This document shows, one piece after another, positions 4,873 through 64,000 of a DNA stretch of 64,000 nt. The position numbers and the translations under genes are program-made. The notes beneath the pieces were generated by a model. The model was not told the DNA's origin. It ran no database searches and was given only the letters and a program-made list of their open reading frames with translations. The DNA comes from Patescibacteria group bacterium (GTDB lineage Bacteria; Patescibacteriota; Patescibacteriia; UBA10025; JAHIVO01), in assembly GCA_041660605.1 (NCBI GenBank), contig JBAZWB010000001.1, positions 137,295 to 201,294 on the forward strand, written 5' to 3'. Numbering within the stretch: position 1 is the first letter of the stretch; the number at the start of each line of letters is the position of its first letter.

Positions 4873-4945
4873 TGATGCCGGAGACCCCGTACAATTCGCT
4901 TCGCTCATGTACGGGGCAGGGAGCCCCGCTAGTCAGCGGGATCTC
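4873..4945 (+). repeat. Hairpin element: 12-nt tgatgccggaga (4873-4884, copy of 5208-5219) followed by CCCCGTACA-ATTCGCTTCGCTCA-TGTACGGGG hairpin and a second CCCGCT-agtc-AGCGGG hairpin
   Basis: Perfect 9-bp inverted repeat around a CGCTTCGCTC core; same core and flank logic at 30175-30213 and 63359-63435. Confidence 0.6.
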
Positions 4946-5207
4946 ATCATTTTATTAAGTTATTGTTTTCGAGAATCTCCGCAAAAGGCGGGATGCGTCA
5001 TCTGGTAATCAATTTTAGGGGTTATAATGGGCGAAAGAGGAGTCGCCACGCCCGCTTCGACGCAGCTGCGTCTGCAGCGAGTCGGGCGGGAACCTCCACG
5101 GGATTGCTCCCACACGGCCCTGCCACCGCCATACGGCGGGGTCCCACCTCCATTTGATTGAAAATATTGTAGCGGGAAACCGTGTGTATTGCTATTGTAA
5201 ATTTTAA

Positions 5208-5262
5208 TTGGTGCCGGAGAGAGGAATTGAACCTCCAAGCCCTTGCGGGCACACGGCCCTCC
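5208..5262 (-). other. tRNA-like 3' fragment (variable arm, T-arm, acceptor 3' strand, encoded CCA); no matching 5' half found
   Basis: Minus strand reads ...GCCCGCAAGGGCTTGGAGGTTCAATTCCTCTCTCCGGCACCA. T-arm and ACCA end are clear, but no 5' acceptor or D-arm could be folded in the 124 nt before tRNA-Leu. Confidence 0.35.
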
Positions 5263-5332
5263 GCCTTTGCCCTCATTATATTCGGGCTATGGCGGACAGG
5301 TGAACAGTGCGCTTCGTGCCTGCCTGTGCCTA

Positions 5333-5416
5333 TGCCGAGAAGAGGACTCGAACCTCCATGGGCTTGCGCCCGCTAGCTCCTGAAGCTAGTGCGTCTACCA
5401 AATTCCGCCATCTCGG
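5333..5416 (-). tRNA. tRNA-Leu (anticodon CAG), type II with long variable arm, CCA not encoded
   Basis: Manual fold: acceptor GCCGAGA/TCTCGGC, D-arm GCGG..CGC, anticodon stem CTAGC/GCTAG with loop TTCAGGA, variable arm CGGGCGCAAGCCC, T-arm GGAGG-TTCGAGT-CCTCT. Confidence 0.85.
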
Positions 5417-5487
5417 CTCAGACATAGGTAGGCAGGTTTGCTAACTTGTCCCGTCGAATGACGGGGTTTCACCACTCCGGCAGAAAA

Positions 5488-17699: not shown

Positions 17700-17897
17700 T
17701 TTTTGCTCCTTTCGAAGCGTGACTCTTCCTTTCGGAATAGCTGCGTCCCTTTCGGGCGCGATGGTTATAAGGTACAGTGAATTTGTAAACGTGCGTTAGC
17801 TAAACTTAATGCGATTGGCTGATATTGTCAAGTAATAATTATTGCCCCATCCGCATTTCCTGGTAAATCACTTGAATGACAATTTATGCAAGAAAAG

Positions 17898-17990
17898 CGG
17901 CTAATAAATAGGGATTTATTAGCTACGCGATATTATAACGTATCTGCTTCCAAAAAAACGGCTAATAAATAGGGATTTATTAGCTACGCG
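17898..17990. repeat. Two direct copies (17898-17929, 17959-17990) of cggCTAATAAAT-AGGG-ATTTATTAGctacgcg, each a perfect 10-bp-arm palindrome
   Basis: Read directly; lies in the divergent intergenic region between 16881-17699(-) and groES. Confidence 0.7.
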
Positions 17991-25275: not shown

Positions 25276-25645
25276 TTACGTTGCTAATCTTTAATCGAGA
25301 TTTCTCCACTCCTCTTCGGCTACGCTCAGAGTCGGTCGAAATGACAGACGTTTGTTCTGGTAAAACCCTTATGACAGGCACTTACGTTTGTCGCCTCGAC
25401 CGATCCCGTCATCCTTCGGTGAGTGGTAGGAGTCCCCGTTGGACACAACTAACGTTGCTAATCTTCAACCGAGATTTCTCCGCTCCTCTTCGGCTACGCT
25501 CAGAGTCGGTCGAAGTGACACACGCCGATGGATTATCAACACCGAGCTACAAACTCAACCAACGCCTGTCACCTCGACCGAGTCACGCGGAGCGTGATGA
25601 GTGGAGAGGTCTCTGTAAATGCCACCTCACTCATTCATACCACCC
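25276..25645. repeat. Array of structured modular repeats (two tandem units containing cgagatttctcc...tcggtcgaa[a/g]tgaca plus tgtcNcctcgaccga inverted modules) that abuts and overlaps the 3' end of the GIY-YIG gene
   Basis: Internal tandem copies at 25297-25346 and 25469-25520; homologous to 10478-10546, 26015-26300 and 29569-29925. Confidence 0.8.
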
Positions 25646-25924
25646 CTCGCTCAAATCATTCCAACAGGGATTCATATTATTAATTAACCATTCTTTTTTT
25701 CCCCGTCGCCACCGTTTTATTTGTTTTTCCCTTTGTATCGCCACAAAAATATCGTCATGCACTTCGTAATACACTAGCTTGTTAACATTATACTTATTAG
25801 TAAAACCAGGATTTACTTTAGTCTTATGTTGCCAAACCCGACTTTCAAGATTTGAAGTCACCCCGACATACAAAACATTCTTTCTTTTATTAGTCAAAAT
25901 ATAAACGTAATATTGCCTTGCCAT
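25631..25924 (-). CDS. Small GIY-YIG nuclease-domain protein (YhbQ/UPF0213-like, 97 aa)
   Basis: YYVYILTN...LYVGVT..L..R..QH motif. Confidence 0.8.
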   Translation of the reverse strand: MARQYYVYILTNKRKNVLYVGVTSNLESRVWQHKTKVNPGFTNKYNVNKLVYYEVHDDIFVAIQREKQIKRWRRGKKEWLINNMNPCWNDLSEGWYE

Positions 25925-26726: not shown

Positions 26727-29045
26727 ATGACGCAAATTGTCGGTTTCGAGTTTGAGGAAGTAGTAGTAGTCGCGGAAAGCCCACACGATATTTTTTCTCC
26801 CCAGCTGCGCAAAGCCGGCATCAAATACAAAAGATGTTCGGAACGCGAGGCGCGGGAGTTAATACTCGGAGATTCTGCGCTTATCATTGTCGTGAATTTA
26901 GGCGCTGAAAAAGTAGGCGAGCGGTTAAGAGCTCTATTTCCCCGAGCGCAGGTAGTTGTCTGTACCGGCGGCGAGAAGGTTTTTGATCCGCGGGTAGTCG
27001 TAGTGCACGGGAAAGGCGAGCATGACCTGCACCGCTTTTCCGACTGGGGAGGCTTTATCAGGCTTATTGGCCAACGGTTAAAGCCGCTGCCCAGGATTTT
27101 CACGCCGGTTCCCGGAGGGCACGACCTGTTTACTTATCTTCAGCCGGAGGAAGATGACTATGCGTACTGTCCGCAAGGGCTCAGCGACGCTTCCGGCACT
27201 ATGCTGAATATGTCCATAGTTTATCTGCGCTGGTACCGGCAGTGGCTGGAGGATGTCAGCAAAATTTCTTTTGATTGCCACTTCAGTTTTTCCGGCAAGA
27301 AAAGAAAAGTCAGGCGCGTGACGGTGCTGGTGGATGAAGTGACATTTATTCATCTTGGGCTGCCGATTTTCCACGAGGAAGACCGGGTGACATTCTTTGA
27401 CTCTGGCGGCAACGAGCACCGGGCTATTGTTGAGCGCATCGGCGATGAAGAAATGAAACTGTATTTTCCGGAAGAGTTGGACCGTTTTGTCGCGGAAGAT
27501 CTGGTTTTTTTCCAGAGAGATGTGGACAACGGCCTGATTGAGGCGCAACTGCAGCTTTGCGAGAATTTTACCACGGGCATGATTGCCAATTATTCCCTTC
27601 CCTGGCTAGTGGCTACCGGCCAGTACAGAAATCAGCAGGCTGACCCGCAAGATAGAGTTTGCTTGCCTGAACGTGAATGGCGCAGGCTGTCCCAGGACCG
27701 TTCGCAGTGTTTGGCCCTGGTTGACATGGTTGGGACGGCTAATTTGGTTTTTACCAATGGACCAGCCGGTACGGGCAAGACTTTCGTTATCTCGCAAGCC
27801 ATACCCCAAAATATCAGTCGCAGGAAAGTCACGCTAGTGCTATCCCATTCCAACAGGGGACTGGATAATATGATAGCCGCCATTGCCAAGCGGTTTACTG
27901 ATCATCGTCTTATTTATCGCCTGGGCAATAGCCAGGATAGCGTGGCTCCAGAGGCACTGCCTTTTCACCGGAGCCAGCGCTTCCGCGGTCCTGACGATAG
28001 GCCGTATCCAGAGGCACGGCAGGCTATGGAGGAGACTCGTAACATTTTGGAGCAATTAGATTTTGGCGACGGCATTGTCATTGGGTGCACCTTGACCTCG
28101 TTCTGGCTGGATAAGACGATGCTAGCTTTGCAGAAGAGCGGGATCCGGTTCCAGGTCGCTTATGTGGACGAAGCTTCGCGCTGCTATTTCTTTGAGCTGC
28201 TGCCTATCCTGCGCGCGGTGGCGGAAAAAGTCATTTTTGTCCTTGATCCCGAACAGCTGGGCAATATCGGCTTGTCTCCCCAGGCTAAGGATCACTTGGT
28301 GCAAAAAGGTTTTGAACCCGGGCAAATTGACGAATTCTTGGCAGGCTGGCCGGCCAGTGTCATTAAGAAGCGCCTGCTTAATTCCAGGATGCTGACAGTC
28401 AACAGGCGTTCCTTGCCTGTGATTTGCCGGCTGGTTAGTGAGGTTTTTTACGACGGTGAGCTTGAATCCGGACGTTTTGATCCGAATAATTCCGGGCAGG
28501 TTATTTTCTACGATACGGCCGCCGCGCAGGATAAGGGCCAGGAACGGCATCACAAATCTTTCAAGAATAGGCGTGAGGCTAATATAGCCGTTAGCTATGT
28601 TGTTAAACGCCTGGCTGCCGGCACAGCGCCAGATCAGATTGGGATTATTACTCCTTACCGGGGACAGATCGGCCTGATCCGGGGCAAGCTACGGCAAGAA
28701 TTGCTTTTTAACGACAAGCTGAAAGCGGTTCGCCAGCGGTATAACATTAACGCTGAAACTATTGATGCCATAGCCACTGCCATGGTGGATACGGTGGATG
28801 CTTTCCAGGGATCAGAGCGGACAGAGATAATCCTAAGCTTCGTCCGCTCAAATGACGAAGGCGACGTGGGTTTCAACCGCTTCGTCAACCGTTTATTGGT
28901 GGCGTTCTCGCGAGCCCGCAACCGCCTGGTGATAATCGGGGATACGCAGACTTTCCTGGCTTCGGAATTTCCAGAAGTGGTCAGGATATTCAAGCAGGTA
29001 ATTGAGTACGTGAAAAAGTATGGTACATACGTGGAGGTAAAATAA
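26727..29045 (+). CDS. Superfamily-1 helicase, Upf1/DNA2-like (AAA_11/AAA_12-type), with an unrecognised N-terminal region of about 330 aa
   Basis: Walker A FTNGPAGTGKTF, Walker B-like VDEASRC, C-terminal VDAFQGSER...NRLLVAFSRARNRLVIIGD; GC-richer than surroundings. Confidence 0.75.
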   Translation: MTQIVGFEFEEVVVVAESPHDIFSPQLRKAGIKYKRCSEREARELILGDSALIIVVNLGAEKVGERLRALFPRAQVVVCTGGEKVFDPRVVVVHGKGEHDLHRFSDWGGFIRLIGQRLKPLPRIFTPVPGGHDLFTYLQPEEDDYAYCPQGLSDASGTMLNMSIVYLRWYRQWLEDVSKISFDCHFSFSGKKRKVRRVTVLVDEVTFIHLGLPIFHEEDRVTFFDSGGNEHRAIVERIGDEEMKLYFPEELDRFVAEDLVFFQRDVDNGLIEAQLQLCENFTTGMIANYSLPWLVATGQYRNQQADPQDRVCLPEREWRRLSQDRSQCLALVDMVGTANLVFTNGPAGTGKTFVISQAIPQNISRRKVTLVLSHSNRGLDNMIAAIAKRFTDHRLIYRLGNSQDSVAPEALPFHRSQRFRGPDDRPYPEARQAMEETRNILEQLDFGDGIVIGCTLTSFWLDKTMLALQKSGIRFQVAYVDEASRCYFFELLPILRAVAEKVIFVLDPEQLGNIGLSPQAKDHLVQKGFEPGQIDEFLAGWPASVIKKRLLNSRMLTVNRRSLPVICRLVSEVFYDGELESGRFDPNNSGQVIFYDTAAAQDKGQERHHKSFKNRREANIAVSYVVKRLAAGTAPDQIGIITPYRGQIGLIRGKLRQELLFNDKLKAVRQRYNINAETIDAIATAMVDTVDAFQGSERTEIILSFVRSNDEGDVGFNRFVNRLLVAFSRARNRLVIIGDTQTFLASEFPEVVRIFKQVIEYVKKYGTYVEVK

Positions 29046-29568
29046 GTAAAAAAATAGGGTGGCTGTGGCAAACAGTCACCCTTTAGTTTTTTGGTCAGGT
29101 CCAAGCTTTATTAAATGCCTTGCAAGTTGCATATAATATTTTTGCCTATACCCCTTCGAATGCCATCAGTGAGGTAAGGAAGCCAGTTAACGTAAGCGTT
29201 AACCTAGTAAAAGGACCGGACCCCTCTTCGAACTCCACCGTGGGTCTTCGCCGTAGTCAACTGCTCATCGCCGTCATGACATATATGATAAGAAGACCAT
29301 TGGCCGTGCAACCACCTACGAATTGCACTGACCAGCTGCCTGCTCCCAGAGAGATTTTCTCTCTTGAACAGGGGCGGAATTGAAGAGGAAATGAACCCTG
29401 CTGGGACTATCCCAAAAGCGAACCTTTGAGAAAGTAGCATTAGAGAACCTCCTCCCTATTCCAGAAATGTAACCGTCCGTACACTAGGCACTGCGACTGT
29501 TACGTGCATATCTTAGCAGAATAAATAATACTGTCAAGGGATTTTTAATGAATTTGAACTCACGCGAT

Positions 29569-29925
29569 TGTCTCCTCGACCGATCCCGTCATCCGTCAGG
29601 GGAGTGGCGGGAACCTCCGTTAAACATAACTAACTTTGTTAATCTCCAAGTCGAGATTTCTCCATTCGTCCTCGTTCCACTCGGGCTCAGTCGAAATGAC
29701 ATGCGTTTTTTGACGACAAACAACACTTGATAAAACCACCCACGTCTGTCATGTCGACCGAGTTACGCGTAGCGTGATGAGCGGAGACATCTCGGTTAAA
29801 CACCACCTCAGCCAGCCCTAACCGAGATTTCTCCATTCAATCTGCCCCGAGCGTAGCCTCTGAGTTTATCGAAGGGGCGTAGTCGAAGGGCTCGAGGTGA
29901 CAAGCGTGGCGGATAAAAAGAGGCG
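29569..29925. repeat. Third large locus of the modular repeat family
   Basis: Contains tgtcNcctcgaccgatcccgtcatcc, aactaacNttgNtaatct..cgagatttctcc, tcagtcgaaatgaca and ggtgacaagcgtggcggataaaaag modules. Confidence 0.8.
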
Positions 29926-30145
29926 GCAATCGTATAAGTTCCATTGGCATGAACCCCCCTTGTTTTATAATCAAAGGGTGGTATGATATACTGATTTTAG
30001 GCATTTTTTAACAAAAAGATGCAGAGGTGAGTTTAACTACGTTTTTTAAGAAGCTGCATCTAAAGTGCAATCAAAGCGGAGAGGTCGCCCCGCCTCCGTA
30101 AAAACTCCGGCGGGGCAGGCATAGTGTAATATATTTCATCAGAAT

Positions 30146-30213
30146 GGAGGGATCGCATAGTTGGTCTAGTGCGCACGCCCCGAAGAATACTCGCTTCGCT
30201 CGTATCTACGGGG
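30146..30213 (+). pseudogene. Partial duplicate of the tRNA-Ser 5' end (29 nt, 30146-30174, 2 mismatches) fused to a CCCCG...CGCTTCGCTC...CGGGG hairpin element (30175-30213)
   Basis: ggagggatcgcatagttggtctagtgcgc versus ggaagggtcgcatagttggtctagtgcgc of the intact tRNA 90 nt downstream. Confidence 0.7.
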
Positions 30214-30267: not shown

Positions 30268-30356
30268 GGAAGGGTCGCATAGTTGGTCTAGTGCGCTTGC
30301 TTGGAAAGCAAGTAAAGGCCAAAAGCCTTTCGCGAGTTCGAATCTCGCCCCTTCCG
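30268..30356 (+). tRNA. tRNA-Ser (anticodon GGA), type II, CCA not encoded
   Basis: Manual fold: acceptor GGAAGGG/CCCTTCC, D-arm GCAT..GTGC, anticodon stem CTTGC/GCAAG with loop TTGGAAA, variable arm AAAGGC-caaaa-GCCTTT, T-arm GCGAG-TTCGAAT-CTCGC. Confidence 0.8.
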
Positions 30357-30384
30357 CTCCGGATCTTATTAGATAGTATAGTTG

Positions 30385-62270: not shown

Positions 62271-63176
62271 ATGGGATACGCTGAAACGCGCTATAACATT
62301 GAAAGAAATCCCGAAATAAAAGAACAGGAACCGGACGTTCGCGTGCCGCTGGTTGACATTGTCAGGCACGGCGATACCGATTATAAAGAATTGCGTGACC
62401 CTAGTTTCAAATTTGATCCGCAGGCTCTGGATTTTAAACTTGATGCCGAGCACCTGGATTTGAACGAGCAGGGGATTGAAAATATTCTCCAGACTGCAAT
62501 GCAGCTGTGCCAGTCTATTGATAAAGAAAAAGAGGTCGTTATGTTGGTTTCCAGCCCGAATTACAGGGCGCAATCAAGCATCCTGCTTATAGAGAAAATT
62601 TTGCAGGAAAATGGCATCGATGTATTGAATTCTTCGGCAGCCAAGCAGGCAGGGGCAAGTAAAGGCATTAGGTTGGTTGGAAATTTGCGGCAGATTGAGC
62701 AACGAGACTCTAATTTCAATCCGACTTGGAGCGCTGAGGACAAGAAATACCGGGAAGAGGATCCGCAAAGACAGAAAATAAGCGCACGCGAAGCGCACAC
62801 GGAAATTGCCGCCCGACTAGGTAAAACCGTTCCCGAGATTTTTACCAGAGATCATGACCAGCTGGATTTGGATTTTAGAAAGTGGCTGCGCCACATGATA
62901 AACATTGATCAAAATTTTGATGAAAAAACTAAAAAAGTCATTGCTGGCCGGAGAATCAGATTAATCTGCGCGACTCACGAAGAAGTGCCTGAAAAGTTTA
63001 TGCAAGAAGCACTGGGTGTGGAGGGTAATTTAGCAAAAGGCCAGGTAATGGAGATAAACGCACAGAATAAACTATCACCGGGCGAAAAAACGGCAGCGCA
63101 GGTAAGCTTGTTTGAGAAAGGAGAGGCAAGAGGTGCGCAGGGCAAGATTTCCATTTCATATGATAAAAAGGAGTAA
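62271..63176 (+). CDS. Histidine-phosphatase-superfamily-like protein (tentative)
   Basis: N-terminal VPLVDIVRHGDTDY resembles the RHG catalytic motif; otherwise unrecognised. Confidence 0.4.
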   Translation: MGYAETRYNIERNPEIKEQEPDVRVPLVDIVRHGDTDYKELRDPSFKFDPQALDFKLDAEHLDLNEQGIENILQTAMQLCQSIDKEKEVVMLVSSPNYRAQSSILLIEKILQENGIDVLNSSAAKQAGASKGIRLVGNLRQIEQRDSNFNPTWSAEDKKYREEDPQRQKISAREAHTEIAARLGKTVPEIFTRDHDQLDLDFRKWLRHMINIDQNFDEKTKKVIAGRRIRLICATHEEVPEKFMQEALGVEGNLAKGQVMEINAQNKLSPGEKTAAQVSLFEKGEARGAQGKISISYDKKE

Positions 63177-63187
63177 ATTTTTTTAAT

Positions 63188-63435
63188 ATGGCACAAGCCC
63201 CATACCAGAGCTCACCTTTGGCTAGCTCCCATCGGGCCTGAGCCCTCAGGGCCGAAGGCAGGGTCATATGGTACGGGGTTAAAGAGCGGTAAAATGGCTT
63301 TTATACGATTATAAAAAGATTAAGTAAATAGATAAGCAATGGCACAGGATAATATCGACCCCGCACCAAAGCTCCCCTTCGACTCCGCTCCTTCAACAAG
63401 TTCAGGAGCTTCGCTCAGGGTCGCTTGATGCGGGG
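63188..63435 (+). repeat. Two decayed duplicates of the dnaG 5' end (63188-63197, 10 nt; 63339-63358, 20 nt), each fused to a CCCC...GGGG hairpin element (63198-63278; 63359-63435)
   Basis: atggcacaag / atggcacaggataatatcga versus the true start atggcacaagataatatcga at 63493; element 2 contains the CTTCGCTC core. Confidence 0.7.
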
Positions 63436-63492
63436 CTAGGTAGAACAATTATTGGTCTAAGGTTTTTCACAGATATAACAAATTATTATACT

Positions 63493-64000
63493 ATGGCACA
63501 AGATAATATCGAGGAAATTAAATCAAAAATTGATGTCGTTGATTTGATACAGGAGTACATCCAGGTCAAGCCGGCAGGCGCCAACAGTTTCAGGGCGCTC
63601 TGTCCGTTTCACCACGAAAAGACGCCGTCTTTCATGGTTTCACGGGACAAGCAGATCTGGCACTGCTTCGGCTGCGCCGAGGGCGGCGATATTTTCGGCT
63701 TTGTCATGAAGATGGAAGGCCTGGAATTTCCTGAGGCACTGCGCATCCTGGCGAAAAAAGCCGGCGTGCAGCTGAAATACCAGGATCCGGCGCAAAGTAA
63801 CCAAAAAACCAGGCTGATGGAGATCTGCAAATCGGCGGCATTTTTCTTCCATAAAATTTTATTGGATCACCCCAAGGCGGAATTTGTCCGGGAATATTTG
63901 AAGAAAAGAAAAGTACAGGAGCAGACAACGGAAGCCTGGCAGCTTGGCTACGCGCCTGACGCCTGGGAGACGCTCAACACTTATTTGACCGGCAAGGGGT
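63493..64000 (+). CDS. dnaG: DNA primase, N-terminal zinc-binding domain (partial, continues beyond window)
   Basis: CPFHHEKTPSF...WHCFGC zinc-ribbon motif. Confidence 0.85.
   Translation, partial: MAQDNIEEIKSKIDVVDLIQEYIQVKPAGANSFRALCPFHHEKTPSFMVSRDKQIWHCFGCAEGGDIFGFVMKMEGLEFPEALRILAKKAGVQLKYQDPAQSNQKTRLMEICKSAAFFFHKILLDHPKAEFVREYLKKRKVQEQTTEAWQLGYAPDAWETLNTYLTGKG

Follow-up and report, generated by a model that had tools for sequence, protein, structure and literature searches.

Displaced copies of the dnaG start joined to GC-rich hairpins in a Patescibacteria genome and its relatives

REP/BIME sequences and the Rickettsia palindromic elements (RPE) are short, GC-rich, imperfect palindromes conserved as structures, which lie dispersed, clustered and nested in intergenic DNA without target duplication and occasionally occur in frame inside genes. 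A conserved GTAG or CGTC head characterises REP/BIME (PMC3733652). Integrative elements leave att duplications and, by deletion and accretion, CIMEs, in which a gene-end fragment, an insert and a regenerated gene follow one another and can be stacked in tandem; tRNA genes are among their targets, with 3'-half fragments that start at the anticodon loop. Homology-facilitated and short-patch double illegitimate recombination, which accompany natural transformation, need no element-encoded enzyme, and combine a long or short homologous anchor with a microhomology joint, so that joints vary and duplications are possible. DNA integration through one-sided homology and microhomology is documented (PMC3240628; bioRxiv 10.1101/2023.11.22.568220), and natural competence has been demonstrated in Saccharibacteria, members of Patescibacteria (PMC10633639). 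The locus described here, in front of the primase gene dnaG, has features in common with each of these systems; an in-frame hairpin was seen in a single case (L092), in a different organism.

Start copies and hairpins in front of dnaG

The window, that is, the whole stretch of 64,000 nucleotides that was analysed, ends within dnaG (DNA primase; 63493..64000, + strand, continuing past the window edge), whose N-terminus MAQDNIEEIKSKID agrees with homologues and which is followed on the contig by rpoD. The gene upstream (62271..63176, + strand) encodes 301 aa and has a full-length orthologue in L006/L099 (45% identity, E = 3e-94). A Shine-Dalgarno-like AAGGAG (63168..63173, + strand) lies 14 nt 5' of the first start copy, and no motif of this type precedes the true dnaG start. 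A sequence-only reading of this DNA had claimed that the true start is preceded by two decayed copies of itself, each followed by an inverted-repeat element, and both parts of this description were confirmed. The sequences ATGGCACAAG at 63188 and ATGGCACAGGATAATATCGA at 63339 are copies of the true start at 63493 (S3, 63493-63512): by pattern search, S1 (63188..63197, + strand) matches it at 10/10 over 10 nt, and S2 (63339..63358, + strand; pattern search and shuffles) at 19/20 over 20 nt. The 20-mer ATGGCACAAGATAATATCGA is found exactly at 63493 and with one mismatch at 63339, with 0 matches expected (100 shuffles), and the 10-mer ATGGCACAAG is limited in the window to 63188 and 63493, with 0.23 expected. 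S1 begins 11 nt downstream of the stop codon of the upstream gene and occupies the position expected for the dnaG start relative to that gene. Similarity among the three units 5' of the ATG was not above chance (P = 0.18 and 0.69), which places the beginning of the repeat at the ATG. The same sequence, identical, is present in two more public assemblies, which argues against an assembly artefact. Both copies open short ORFs on the + strand, one of 17 codons (MAQAPYQSSPLASSHRA, then a stop; 63188..63241) that enters the first hairpin, and one of 29 codons (MAQDNIDPAPKL..., ending in a stop; 63339..63428) that crosses the second.

S1 and S2 each lie directly 5' of a GC-rich imperfect palindrome, which is followed by an AT-rich spacer. 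Element 1 (63198..63278, + strand; CCCCATACCA...TGGTACGGGG; 37 bits and E = 2e-7 with the family model) has a long loop that is itself structured, and element 2 (63359..63435, + strand; 45 bits) has an outer stem, CCCCGCACCAAAGC/GCTTGATGCGGGG, close to the stem of the hairpin in the relative L009, together with a second hairpin nested in its loop (63374..63420, + strand) that carries CTTCGCTC (63409-63416). The two elements are homologous and align loosely, in their stems and a few other blocks. They fold better than shuffled sequences (z = -2.1 and -3.6 for elements 1 and 2 on the + strand; -3.3 and -5.1 on the - strand), and the dnaG leader folded as a whole gave z = -0.9, which argues against long-range structure beyond the hairpin. 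The core CTTCGCTC, said in the same reading to be shared with elements at 4885 and 30175, is present at 63409, 4899 and 30194 (+ strand), always within a CCCC...GGGG hairpin; its count in the window (4 matches against 1.5 expected) is borderline taken alone. Spacer 1 (63279..63338, + strand) does not significantly resemble spacer 2, the native upstream sequence or the spacers of relatives, and spacer 2 (63436..63492, + strand) contains weak sigma-70-like matches ending at the ATG and no Shine-Dalgarno motif. Promoter and terminator scans returned weak matches only. On the + strand no T-run follows either dnaG hairpin, a canonical terminator being present after the PPDK gene, and the identification of the hairpins as intrinsic terminators was rejected because no U-tract follows the GC-rich stems. 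Rfam searches (gathering threshold on the window; E-value mode on 63100-63560 and 29040-29960) returned two tRNAs and noise only. Judged from the sequence, an effect of the insert on dnaG expression is plausible: dnaG would probably no longer be coupled to the gene before it or to that gene's Shine-Dalgarno motif and would lie behind two short ORFs that enter stable hairpins, an exchange that would bear on how dnaG-rpoD expression is set.

The arrangement in relatives and at tRNA genes

In L006/L099 the orthologous 301-aa gene is followed by a 33-nt spacer and dnaG; this insert-free locus represents the empty site, and agrees with the earlier proposal that the gene start is regenerated upon insertion into the 5' end of dnaG. 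Four Patescibacteria species (L008, L009, L012 and L095; L012 is the same as L090) have a decayed dnaG start joined at +20 to a hairpin of the same family, with the joint ...ATYGA/CCCY (the slash marking the junction), then a spacer of 19-80 nt and then the true start. Since the relatives show the same arrangement, the repeat is not due to chance, and we read the dnaG start as a probable recurrent recombination joint. In three further loci (L007, L011 and L094) the first 24-33 nt of a 200-aa transglutaminase-like gene are a copy of the dnaG start (27/33 in L094). Two pairs of close relatives differ in what the slot contains, one member having the hairpin and its partner the 200-aa gene: L095 (hairpin) and L094 (gene) share 83% DnaG identity, and L008 (hairpin) and L007/L011 (gene) 82-86%. 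Within the L008 clade the start copy and the leader are orthologous. The 200-aa gene aligns gap-free from residue 1 with an orthologue in L097 that has no start copy, so that its own start copy looks like a short conversion patch and not an insertion joint. The spacers of the window were considered as possible remnants of this gene and the idea was rejected, the similarity not being significant and the best matches clustering in an A-rich low-complexity stretch. Codon 2 of the working start differs from proline (GCA, GCG, GTT, TCG) in the hairpin-bearing genome and encodes proline in its sister in all 4 of 4 contrasts, and proline codon 2 is retained in 4/5 dead start copies; this pattern in the sequences is consistent with a working start that arrived with the module or, alternatively, could reflect selection on translation initiation after leader replacement. 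Start copies are absent at distant dnaG loci (L015-L082), no relative above 65% DnaG identity was found in a set of 5.8 billion proteins, a single metagenome scan gave only 4 loci, and viral contigs, scanned for the hairpin and for the start-hairpin joint, yielded either no match or just coding matches due to chance.

The hairpin is conserved as a structure, with 89% of cells paired against 33-46% in slid controls, and 3 of 13 pairs have changed on both sides (in one column pair, UA 4 times, CG 3 times and AU once). Stems measure 9-14 bp and all open with CCCC or CCCT. A covariance model run over 660 kb of loci recovered the family twice in the window and at the start copies of L009, L012 and L095, missed the shorter L008 hairpin, and placed it in only four further positions (L021, L027, L091 and L092). 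With this family model, the four top-scoring + strand hairpins of the window all adjoin a gene fragment. Between copies the hairpin is conserved and the spacers are not; insert sizes span 44-141 nt, and the repeats measure 9, 10, 14, 18, 20, 24-33, 29 and about 48 nt. No terminal inverted repeats were found, the units ending in CCCCGCACC... and ...TTATTATACT.

The order of fragment, hairpin, spacer and intact gene is repeated at tRNA-Ser, tRNA-Leu and tRNA-Asn of this contig, where partial tRNA copies adjoin CCCC...GGGG hairpins at 3/3 of the tRNA genes seen, and also at tRNA-Ser(TGA) in a distant Buchananbacteria genome. The recurrence of the pattern, which the sequence-only reading had asserted, therefore holds at three tRNAs and at dnaG in four other species. 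Its parallel at tRNA-Ser was likewise found as claimed: a copy of the first 29 nt of tRNA-Ser(GGA) (30146..30174, + strand; 27/29) is followed, 3 nt past its end, by a CCCC...GGGG hairpin with a CGCTTCGCTC loop (30178..30213, + strand; at 12 bits a marginal family member) and then by the intact gene (30268..30357, + strand). At 4876..4916 (+ strand) a 9-nt tRNA 3'-end fragment, TGCCGGAGA, runs directly into a hairpin (4885-4916, again with a CGCTTCGCTC loop; 21 bits with the family model). The intact tRNA-Leu(CAG) gene (5333..5417, - strand) has beside it two tRNA 3'-half fragments (about 5033-5120 and 5212-5259, within 5033..5303, + strand), both of which end at the anticodon-stem boundary and adjoin hairpins, one of them also containing a hairpin within the T arm. 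A hand count gives about 69% identity to the resident tRNA-Leu, from which we take them to be remnants of another type-II tRNA. Because the tRNA-Leu fragments and a fragment in L003 are remnants of other tRNA genes and not copies of the neighbouring gene, not every combination of fragment and hairpin is the same type of event. Split tRNA halves were rejected, no matching 5' half having been found.

The dnaG gene also forms the right border of a hyper-variable slot, tRNA-Ser(GGA)...dnaG, with a content of 0 to 33 kb: the two genes are 30-64 nt apart in L003/L004 and 33 kb apart in the window, and other relatives have 0.16 to 2.7 kb of unrelated genes between them. No integrase or transposase domain was found in the window or its 10-kb flank, and the search for integrases was equally negative over about 85 kb of this genome and at about 20 related dnaG loci. 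In L021 a truncated large serine recombinase gene adjoins tRNA-Ser(GGA).

Origin of the start copies

We hypothesise, with roughly even confidence, that the arrangement consists of modules or scars bounded by start copies and left by recombination through a short conserved gene end. The 325 bp in front of dnaG would be a stack of two short non-coding modules, each a hairpin with an AT-rich spacer, lodged within the opening 10-20 nt of dnaG between direct copies of its start (S), the left copies being displaced dead starts and the right-most copy the working start. The short, highly conserved start would act as the recombination joint of the tRNA-Ser(GGA)...dnaG slot: DNA ending in, or brought beside, a copy of S would have recombined in front of dnaG, with the essential gene regenerated, and later recombination between S copies would multiply, swap or delete modules, which could carry either just a hairpin or a gene whose start is S itself. 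The hairpin would be a REP/RPE-like GC-rich palindrome, kept as a structure and marking the inner edge of the displaced fragment. The repeat would be made by recombination through short gene-end homology and not by the staggered cut of a transposase, possibly by a recombinase acting in trans, or by short-homology or homology-anchored illegitimate recombination of DNA taken up by the cell. The repeats begin at the ATG or at tRNA position +1, which is expected if incoming DNA brings along a gene-end copy of its own. The corresponding donor arrangement (hairpin, spacer and dnaG with no dead start) was not found among the loci examined. That five genomes share the +20 joint calls for a single origin with later spread or else for a site-specific step, and, since the hairpins of the window align loosely and its start copies match at 10/10 and 19/20, recent independent events or gene conversion are needed. 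Two other candidates were set aside: in-situ tandem duplication of the upstream region with the start (the units are no more alike upstream than chance would give, and in L012 the dead start is not preceded by a hairpin), and a Xer/dif-like site in the dnaG start (a partial resemblance by eye, ATAA-N6-...TTAAAT, inapplicable to the tRNA joints).

An unlikely alternative is that one ancient insertion became a functional dnaG leader, which was selected and vertically inherited while the dead start decayed. The hairpin would then serve as a terminator, as an insulator, as a stem that stabilises the mRNA or, jointly with the short ORF, as an attenuator, and the two units of the window would derive from unequal crossing-over between start copies. 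The same +20 joint and hairpin family in all carriers and the compensatory changes in the stems are compatible with this history, as is L012, where the hairpin is intact beside a start copy that retains about 13/20 positions, contains an indel and no longer has its ATG. In E. coli, moreover, an attenuating terminator occupies an analogous place between an upstream gene, rpsU, and dnaG. However, the distribution is patchy, with sisters that lack the hairpin or have a gene instead; L012 and L095 no longer have the short ORF's ATG, which argues against a conserved leader peptide; the stems have no U-tract, although canonical terminators exist in this genome; the hairpins of the window are far more diverged than their start copies; and the same architecture stands at tRNA genes, where a translational leader would make no sense.

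There is also a limited chance that these are scars of integrase-mediated integration, that is, decayed or miniature CIME-like integrative elements whose attP carried the gene end, with the hairpin as the terminal arm of the element and the tandem units as products of accretion; this would be a sub-variant of recombination through a conserved gene end with the enzyme class named. It would account for the near-identical direct repeats of gene ends (19/20, 27/29 and, for the partial copy of tRNA-Asn, 18/18), and for the 3'-half fragments of tRNA-Leu type and of tRNA-Asn, which begin at the anticodon-loop boundary, where tyrosine integrases that target tRNA genes reportedly cross over as a rule (Williams 2002). 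The variable stretch from tRNA-Ser to dnaG also looks like a hot spot for islands, and the recombinase remnant in L021 fits as well. Inserts of 44-141 nt with unconserved spacers are nevertheless too small and too variable for arm-type sites, the 5' copy of tRNA-Ser stops before the anticodon stem-loop instead of spanning it, large serine recombinases are not known to make long repeats, and the surveys of this genome and of related dnaG loci, as described above, revealed no integrase.

The sequence-only reading had suggested a mobile hairpin with target duplication or repair by gene-start regeneration; duplication of the target site by a discrete mobile hairpin was not supported. On such an account a non-autonomous, MITE- or REP-like hairpin would transpose into gene ends with a long duplication from a staggered cut, and insertions would survive only where the duplication regenerates the gene. 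The layout of copy, insert and copy is what this predicts; the two stacked units, with near-perfect copies and diverged hairpins, look like two recent events; the family recurs beside gene fragments; and the third base of codon 5 (AAT or AAC) is common to dead and working starts in 4/4 informative genomes. We nevertheless consider it quite improbable. Terminal inverted repeats are absent, the hairpin alone is conserved next to unrelated spacers, inserts span 44-141 nt, repeats from 9 to about 48 nt match no known transposase, sister genomes have a 600-nt gene in the slot, and no transposase was found in the window or its 10-kb flank. Moreover, hairpins have inserted with no duplication into two pseudo-tRNA fragments, into the loop of another hairpin (element 2) and, in frame, into a PBP gene (L092), so that duplication is not a by-product of hairpin insertion and, with spacers that are not conserved, a classic MITE that makes target-site duplications is unlikely.

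At similarly low probability, the first 7-11 codons of dnaG could be an attachment site in a Patescibacteria family, an integron-like cassette platform with no known integrase. Its cassettes, the 200-aa transglutaminase-like ORF or a hairpin-only unit, would each open with a copy of the dnaG start and, since they begin in this way, would be expressed from the resident promoter and start codon; dnaG would be regenerated behind them, and arrays would grow, shrink or swap by recombination between copies. Finally, an RNA device, in which the minus strand would encode a stable hairpin and 20 nt antisense to the dnaG start and act as a trans-antisense regulator or as a guide of an RNA-guided system, is very improbable, for although the minus strand folds more stably (-43.8 kcal/mol, z = -5.1), has a 10/12 promoter-like match from 63512 to 63485 and would present a hairpin with about 20 nt behind it, as guides of Cas12/TnpB type do, the copies of 9 to 48 nt are not guide-like, they do not face the target gene in the same direction at dnaG/tRNA-Ser as at tRNA-Leu/tRNA-Asn, the wobbles and mismatches seen across species show no consistent preference for either strand, L008, L009, L012 and L095 do not (by eye) share the promoter-like match, and there is neither an effector gene nearby nor an Rfam match.

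If recombination through short conserved gene ends is the right reading, the start region of an essential replication gene would be a site at which foreign or selfish DNA can dock repeatedly, in episymbiotic bacteria that have reduced genomes, are probably competent and possess few classical mobile elements. It would offer a concrete route for gene gain and loss in the CPR, with short conserved gene ends as portable recombination sites and hairpins at the joint, and would explain pseudo-starts and tRNA fragments that mislead gene callers. If the units are merely decayed recombination scars, they would be ordinary genome archaeology, yet useful in annotation.

Comparison with known systems

Guides of crRNA or omega-RNA type differ from the present units, whose copies measure 9 to 48 nt and which have no effector, no conserved promoter and no Rfam match. 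MITEs have terminal inverted repeats, a conserved full-length unit and a target-site duplication of fixed length, none of which is seen here. The systems of Cas1-type integrases (the CRISPR repeat, and casposons with a 14-15 bp target-site duplication at tRNA or EF-2 gene ends) share with the present loci a long direct duplication, insertion beside a conserved gene end and stacked units of repeat, insert and repeat; here, however, Cas1 and terminal inverted repeats are lacking, homologous hairpins stand in place of unique spacers, and repeat length is not fixed. Integron cassette arrays (attI/attC) likewise have a fixed platform by a resident promoter or start and a hairpin-associated repeated site between cassettes, and a single promoter-less ORF can be a cassette. 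They differ in that R''/R' core sites (RYYYAAC...GTTRRRY) and IntI are absent here, the hairpin ends being CCCCGCACC and GATGCGGGG, and in that the repeated site is the copy of an essential-gene start, 5' of the hairpin.

Att duplications and CIMEs come close in layout, but the inserts here measure 44-141 nt with unconserved spacers and no integrase found, the target consists of the 20 nt that open a protein-coding gene, and cargo genes start on the repeat. REP/BIME and RPE come close in the palindrome itself. The hairpins here have no GTAG or CGTC at either end, their stems starting with CCCC or CCCT, and no RAYT (Y1 HUH) domain was found in the window or its flank, the part covered being about 85 kb of a contig of about 904 kb; moreover, the best members of the family lie flush against partial copies of conserved genes, a placement not known for REP or RPE. 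Illegitimate recombination of incoming DNA is sporadic and scattered, whereas here the joint between +20 of the dnaG start and the hairpin is found in five species and the hairpin always marks the illegitimate end.

Copies of the dnaG start in front of dnaG

The source genome belongs to the Patescibacteria (CPR), near 'Kerfeldbacteria', and its best species-level relatives show a DnaG identity of 59-65%; the databases searched contain no close relative. Its dnaG starts at 63493, with an N-terminus (MAQDNIEEIKSKID) that is colinear with all homologues, and is followed by rpoD. The upstream 301-aa gene has its stop codon at 63176, leaving 316 nt before this start, in which we confirmed the two decayed dnaG starts, each joined to a hairpin, that the sequence-only reading had described. 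The first copy, S1 (63188-63197, ATGGCACAAG), matches the working start, S3, at 10/10 positions and is followed by hairpin 1 (63198-63278) and a spacer (63279-63338). The second, S2 (63339-63358, ATGGCACAGGATAATATCGA), matches S3 at 19/20 positions, where no such match is expected by chance, and is followed by hairpin 2 (63359-63435) and a second spacer (63436-63492) that leads into S3. Hairpin 1 is homologous to hairpin 2 (CCCCryACCArAGC ... tgrTrCGGGG), and shuffled sequence folds less well than either. The core CTTCGCTC reported for the second element is indeed present; it lies in an inner hairpin that hairpin 2 carries within its loop. Comparison of the units revealed no similarity beyond chance upstream of the ATG. 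Two further public assemblies contain the window sequence base for base, so an assembly error does not account for the stretch.

AAGGAG precedes S1, which lies 11 nt past the stop codon of the 301-aa gene, and dnaG has likely lost this Shine-Dalgarno motif. In front of dnaG lie a 17-codon and a 29-codon ORF, both of which run into stable hairpins, and promoter-like matches in the second spacer are weak. From the lost motif and the short ORFs we infer that dnaG expression is probably uncoupled from the upstream gene.

The relatives compared comprised ~20 distinct family members. Two of their loci (L006 and L099) carry a full-length orthologue of the 301-aa gene (45% identity), a 33-nt spacer and dnaG, with nothing inserted; the window stretch is an insertion, and S1 occupies the expected dnaG start site relative to the 301-aa gene. 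In four more species (L009, L012 (= L090), L095 and L008), a decayed dnaG start is joined to a hairpin at the identical position (...ATYGA directly followed by CCCY), with a 19-80-nt spacer after the hairpin and then the working start. In L101 and L103, where the upstream genes differ, a common leader occupies the 40 nt upstream of dnaG and ends in ...GGTAATGGTAATTTTT(C/T)AGT immediately before the ATG; it may be a conserved dnaG 5' UTR of that subgroup.

A hairpin family and its parallels at tRNA genes

The hairpins at dnaG starts form a single family. Nine sequences were compared: 89% of their stem cells are paired, and pairing falls to 33-46% when the partner is slid by 1-3 columns as a control; both sides have changed in 3 of 13 pairs, one column pair being UA (n=4), CG (n=3) or AU (n=1). 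A covariance model built from the family hairpins was applied to 660 kb of fetched loci. It matched the hairpin at each dnaG start copy that has one of the family type (two in the window, L009, L012 and L095), gave no match to the shorter L008 hairpin, and elsewhere in the 660 kb matched at only four places (L021, L027, L091 and L092). With filters off, the best plus-strand scores in the window were those of the two dnaG hairpins, then 4885 and then 30178, and each of these four hairpins lies directly 3' of a gene fragment. In L092/L093 (10904-10952), a family hairpin sits in frame within a PBP/FtsI-like gene and adds the peptide TPRQSPEGERADKLGTG.

The same kind of structure was found at all three tRNA genes seen on the contig. 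At tRNA-Ser(GGA), which the sequence-only reading had likened to dnaG, this held: its first 29 nt are copied with 27/29 matches, and a hairpin lies 3 nt beyond the copy. At tRNA-Asn (17364-17640 of L001, the same contig, ~3.6 kb beyond the window's right end) the order is tRNA, CCCC...GGGG hairpin, copy; the 18/18 copy of the 3' half lies 4 nt after the hairpin, begins at the anticodon-loop boundary and is interrupted by two further hairpins without flanking duplication. tRNA-Leu(CAG) has three tRNA 3'-end fragments, each adjoining a hairpin. The two long ones are only ~69% identical to the resident gene by hand count, and a fragment in L003 derives from a neighbouring tRNA-Ser(TGA)-type gene; these long fragments and that of L003 are remnants of other genes, not true copies. 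In a distant Buchananbacteria locus (L021), a truncated large serine recombinase ORF (Zn_ribbon_recom) adjoining the 3' end of tRNA-Ser(GGA) and the neighbouring tRNA-Ser(TGA) region lie at 5-751 and 683-1330, and upstream of tRNA-Ser(TGA) a 14-nt copy of its start comes before several hairpins, of which one belongs to the family. L006/L099 (1905-1945) carry a 9-10-nt copy of the first bases of tRNA-Ser(GGA) (GGAGAGGTC) 31 nt upstream of it with no hairpin between, a minimal version of the gene-start-copy pattern.

The covariation in the stem would also suit a single ancient insertion retained as a functional dnaG leader. We consider this unlikely: the hairpins are patchily distributed, no U-tract is present, L012 and L095 have lost the ATG of the short ORF, and there are parallels at tRNA genes.

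A variable region bordered by dnaG

The ancestral order is PPDK ... tRNA-Ser(GGA) - dnaG - rpoD - tRNA-Asn. L003 and L004 have 30-64 nt between tRNA-Ser and dnaG; in other relatives unrelated accessory genes fill 0.16 to 2.7 kb there, and the window has a 33-kb block (30358-63187). This block, which contains a 6677-aa ORF (33379-53412), looks as a whole like accessory cargo in a hot spot, of which the dnaG start is the right-hand edge; several surface-protein-like genes also lie in it. In relatives, small GIY-YIG ORFs directly adjoin tRNA-Ser (L004, L096) or tRNA-Asn (L094, L102). Intein and LAGLIDADG domains are present in one DnaG homologue of 984 aa (P0022); dnaG of this group is thus also targeted by a different selfish element.

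The window holds other structured repeats. Two clusters of ~170-nt tandem, highly structured repeats (25278-25640 and 29560-29900) share a 73-nt core, 68/73 identical between copies, and a GIY-YIG nuclease ORF (25631-25924, minus strand, 97 aa) lies beside one of them. A helicase gene and a repeat cluster are separated by ~400 nt of GC-rich non-coding DNA (29100-29520), which gave no Rfam match even at E = 1 and could be an undetected structured RNA. Upstream of groES/groEL (17893-17990), two tandem 61-nt units each contain a perfect palindrome, GCTAATAAAT-AGGG-ATTTATTAGC, and look like an operator, but not of the CIRCE consensus.

In L007, L011 and L094, a 200-aa transglutaminase-like gene (weak Pfam match) lies directly upstream of dnaG and itself opens with a dnaG start copy (27/33 nt in L094; ~20/24 by hand count in the L007/L011 clade). 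The DnaG tree contains two sister pairs in which one side has the hairpin and the other the gene (L095 versus L094, 83% DnaG identity; L008 versus L007/L011, 82-86%), and 3/3 genomes of the L008 clade have an orthologous dead start and leader. Therefore, the content between start copies was exchanged while the copies stayed put. Since the orthologue of the 200-aa gene in L097, which has no start copy, aligns gap-free from residue 1, the start copy in the gene case behaves like a short replacement patch. Moreover, in 4/4 sister contrasts codon 2 of the working start does not encode proline where the genome bears the hairpin (GCA, GCG, GTT or TCG) but does so in the sister; proline is kept in 4/5 dead copies. 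This is consistent with a working start that arrived with the module; alternatively, selection may have acted on translation initiation once the leader had changed.

Origin of the repeats

Our best explanation, to which we give about an even chance, is that recombination through the dnaG start built the stretch as a short series of modules, each hairpin plus spacer, bounded by copies of that start. Recombination would act via the short, highly conserved dnaG start at the border of a variable region, with the hairpin as a REP/RPE-like palindrome marking the inner edge of the displaced fragment. The repeats start at the ATG or at tRNA position +1, as expected if incoming DNA brings its own conserved gene end beside an unrelated flank; sequence comparison found no relatedness of the spacers between copies or to the 200-aa gene. 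A recombinase acting in trans might make the joints, or they might result from short-homology or homology-anchored illegitimate recombination of taken-up DNA. Natural competence was shown in Saccharibacteria (PMC10633639), and both kinds of illegitimate recombination are documented in other bacteria (PMC3240628; bioRxiv 10.1101/2023.11.22.568220).

Classical integrase scars would be a sub-variant of this recombination with a named enzyme class, and we hold them to be doubtful. No integrase, transposase, HUH or Cas1 domain was found in the window or its 10-kb flank (~85 kb of the source genome examined), and large serine recombinases, the class of the truncated L021 ORF, are not known to make long repeats. 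A MITE making target-site duplications, close to the mobile hairpin first proposed from the sequence, is quite improbable: only the hairpin is conserved, with no terminal inverted repeats, the repeat length varies from 9 to ~48 nt, the repeat start at the ATG or tRNA +1 speaks against target-site duplication, and hairpins of this kind were inserted elsewhere without flanking repeat (in the loop of hairpin 2, in the T arms of two pseudo-tRNA fragments and in the PBP-like gene). A minus-strand RNA consisting of hairpin plus antisense part, suggested by a more stable minus-strand fold and a promoter-like match, is very improbable: the copies vary in length and are inconsistently oriented, and conservation is lacking.

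In the literature, we found no report combining such a hairpin family, dnaG start joint and alternative cargo. To our knowledge, what is new is that several species have a conserved hairpin family at one and the same joint within the first 20 nt of an essential protein gene, together with alternative cargo that takes the copy as its own start and with no recombinase found in the sequence examined. Neither palindromic repeats nor partial copies of genes at insertion sites are new in themselves. The in-frame hairpin of the PBP/FtsI-like gene resembles Rickettsia palindromic elements.
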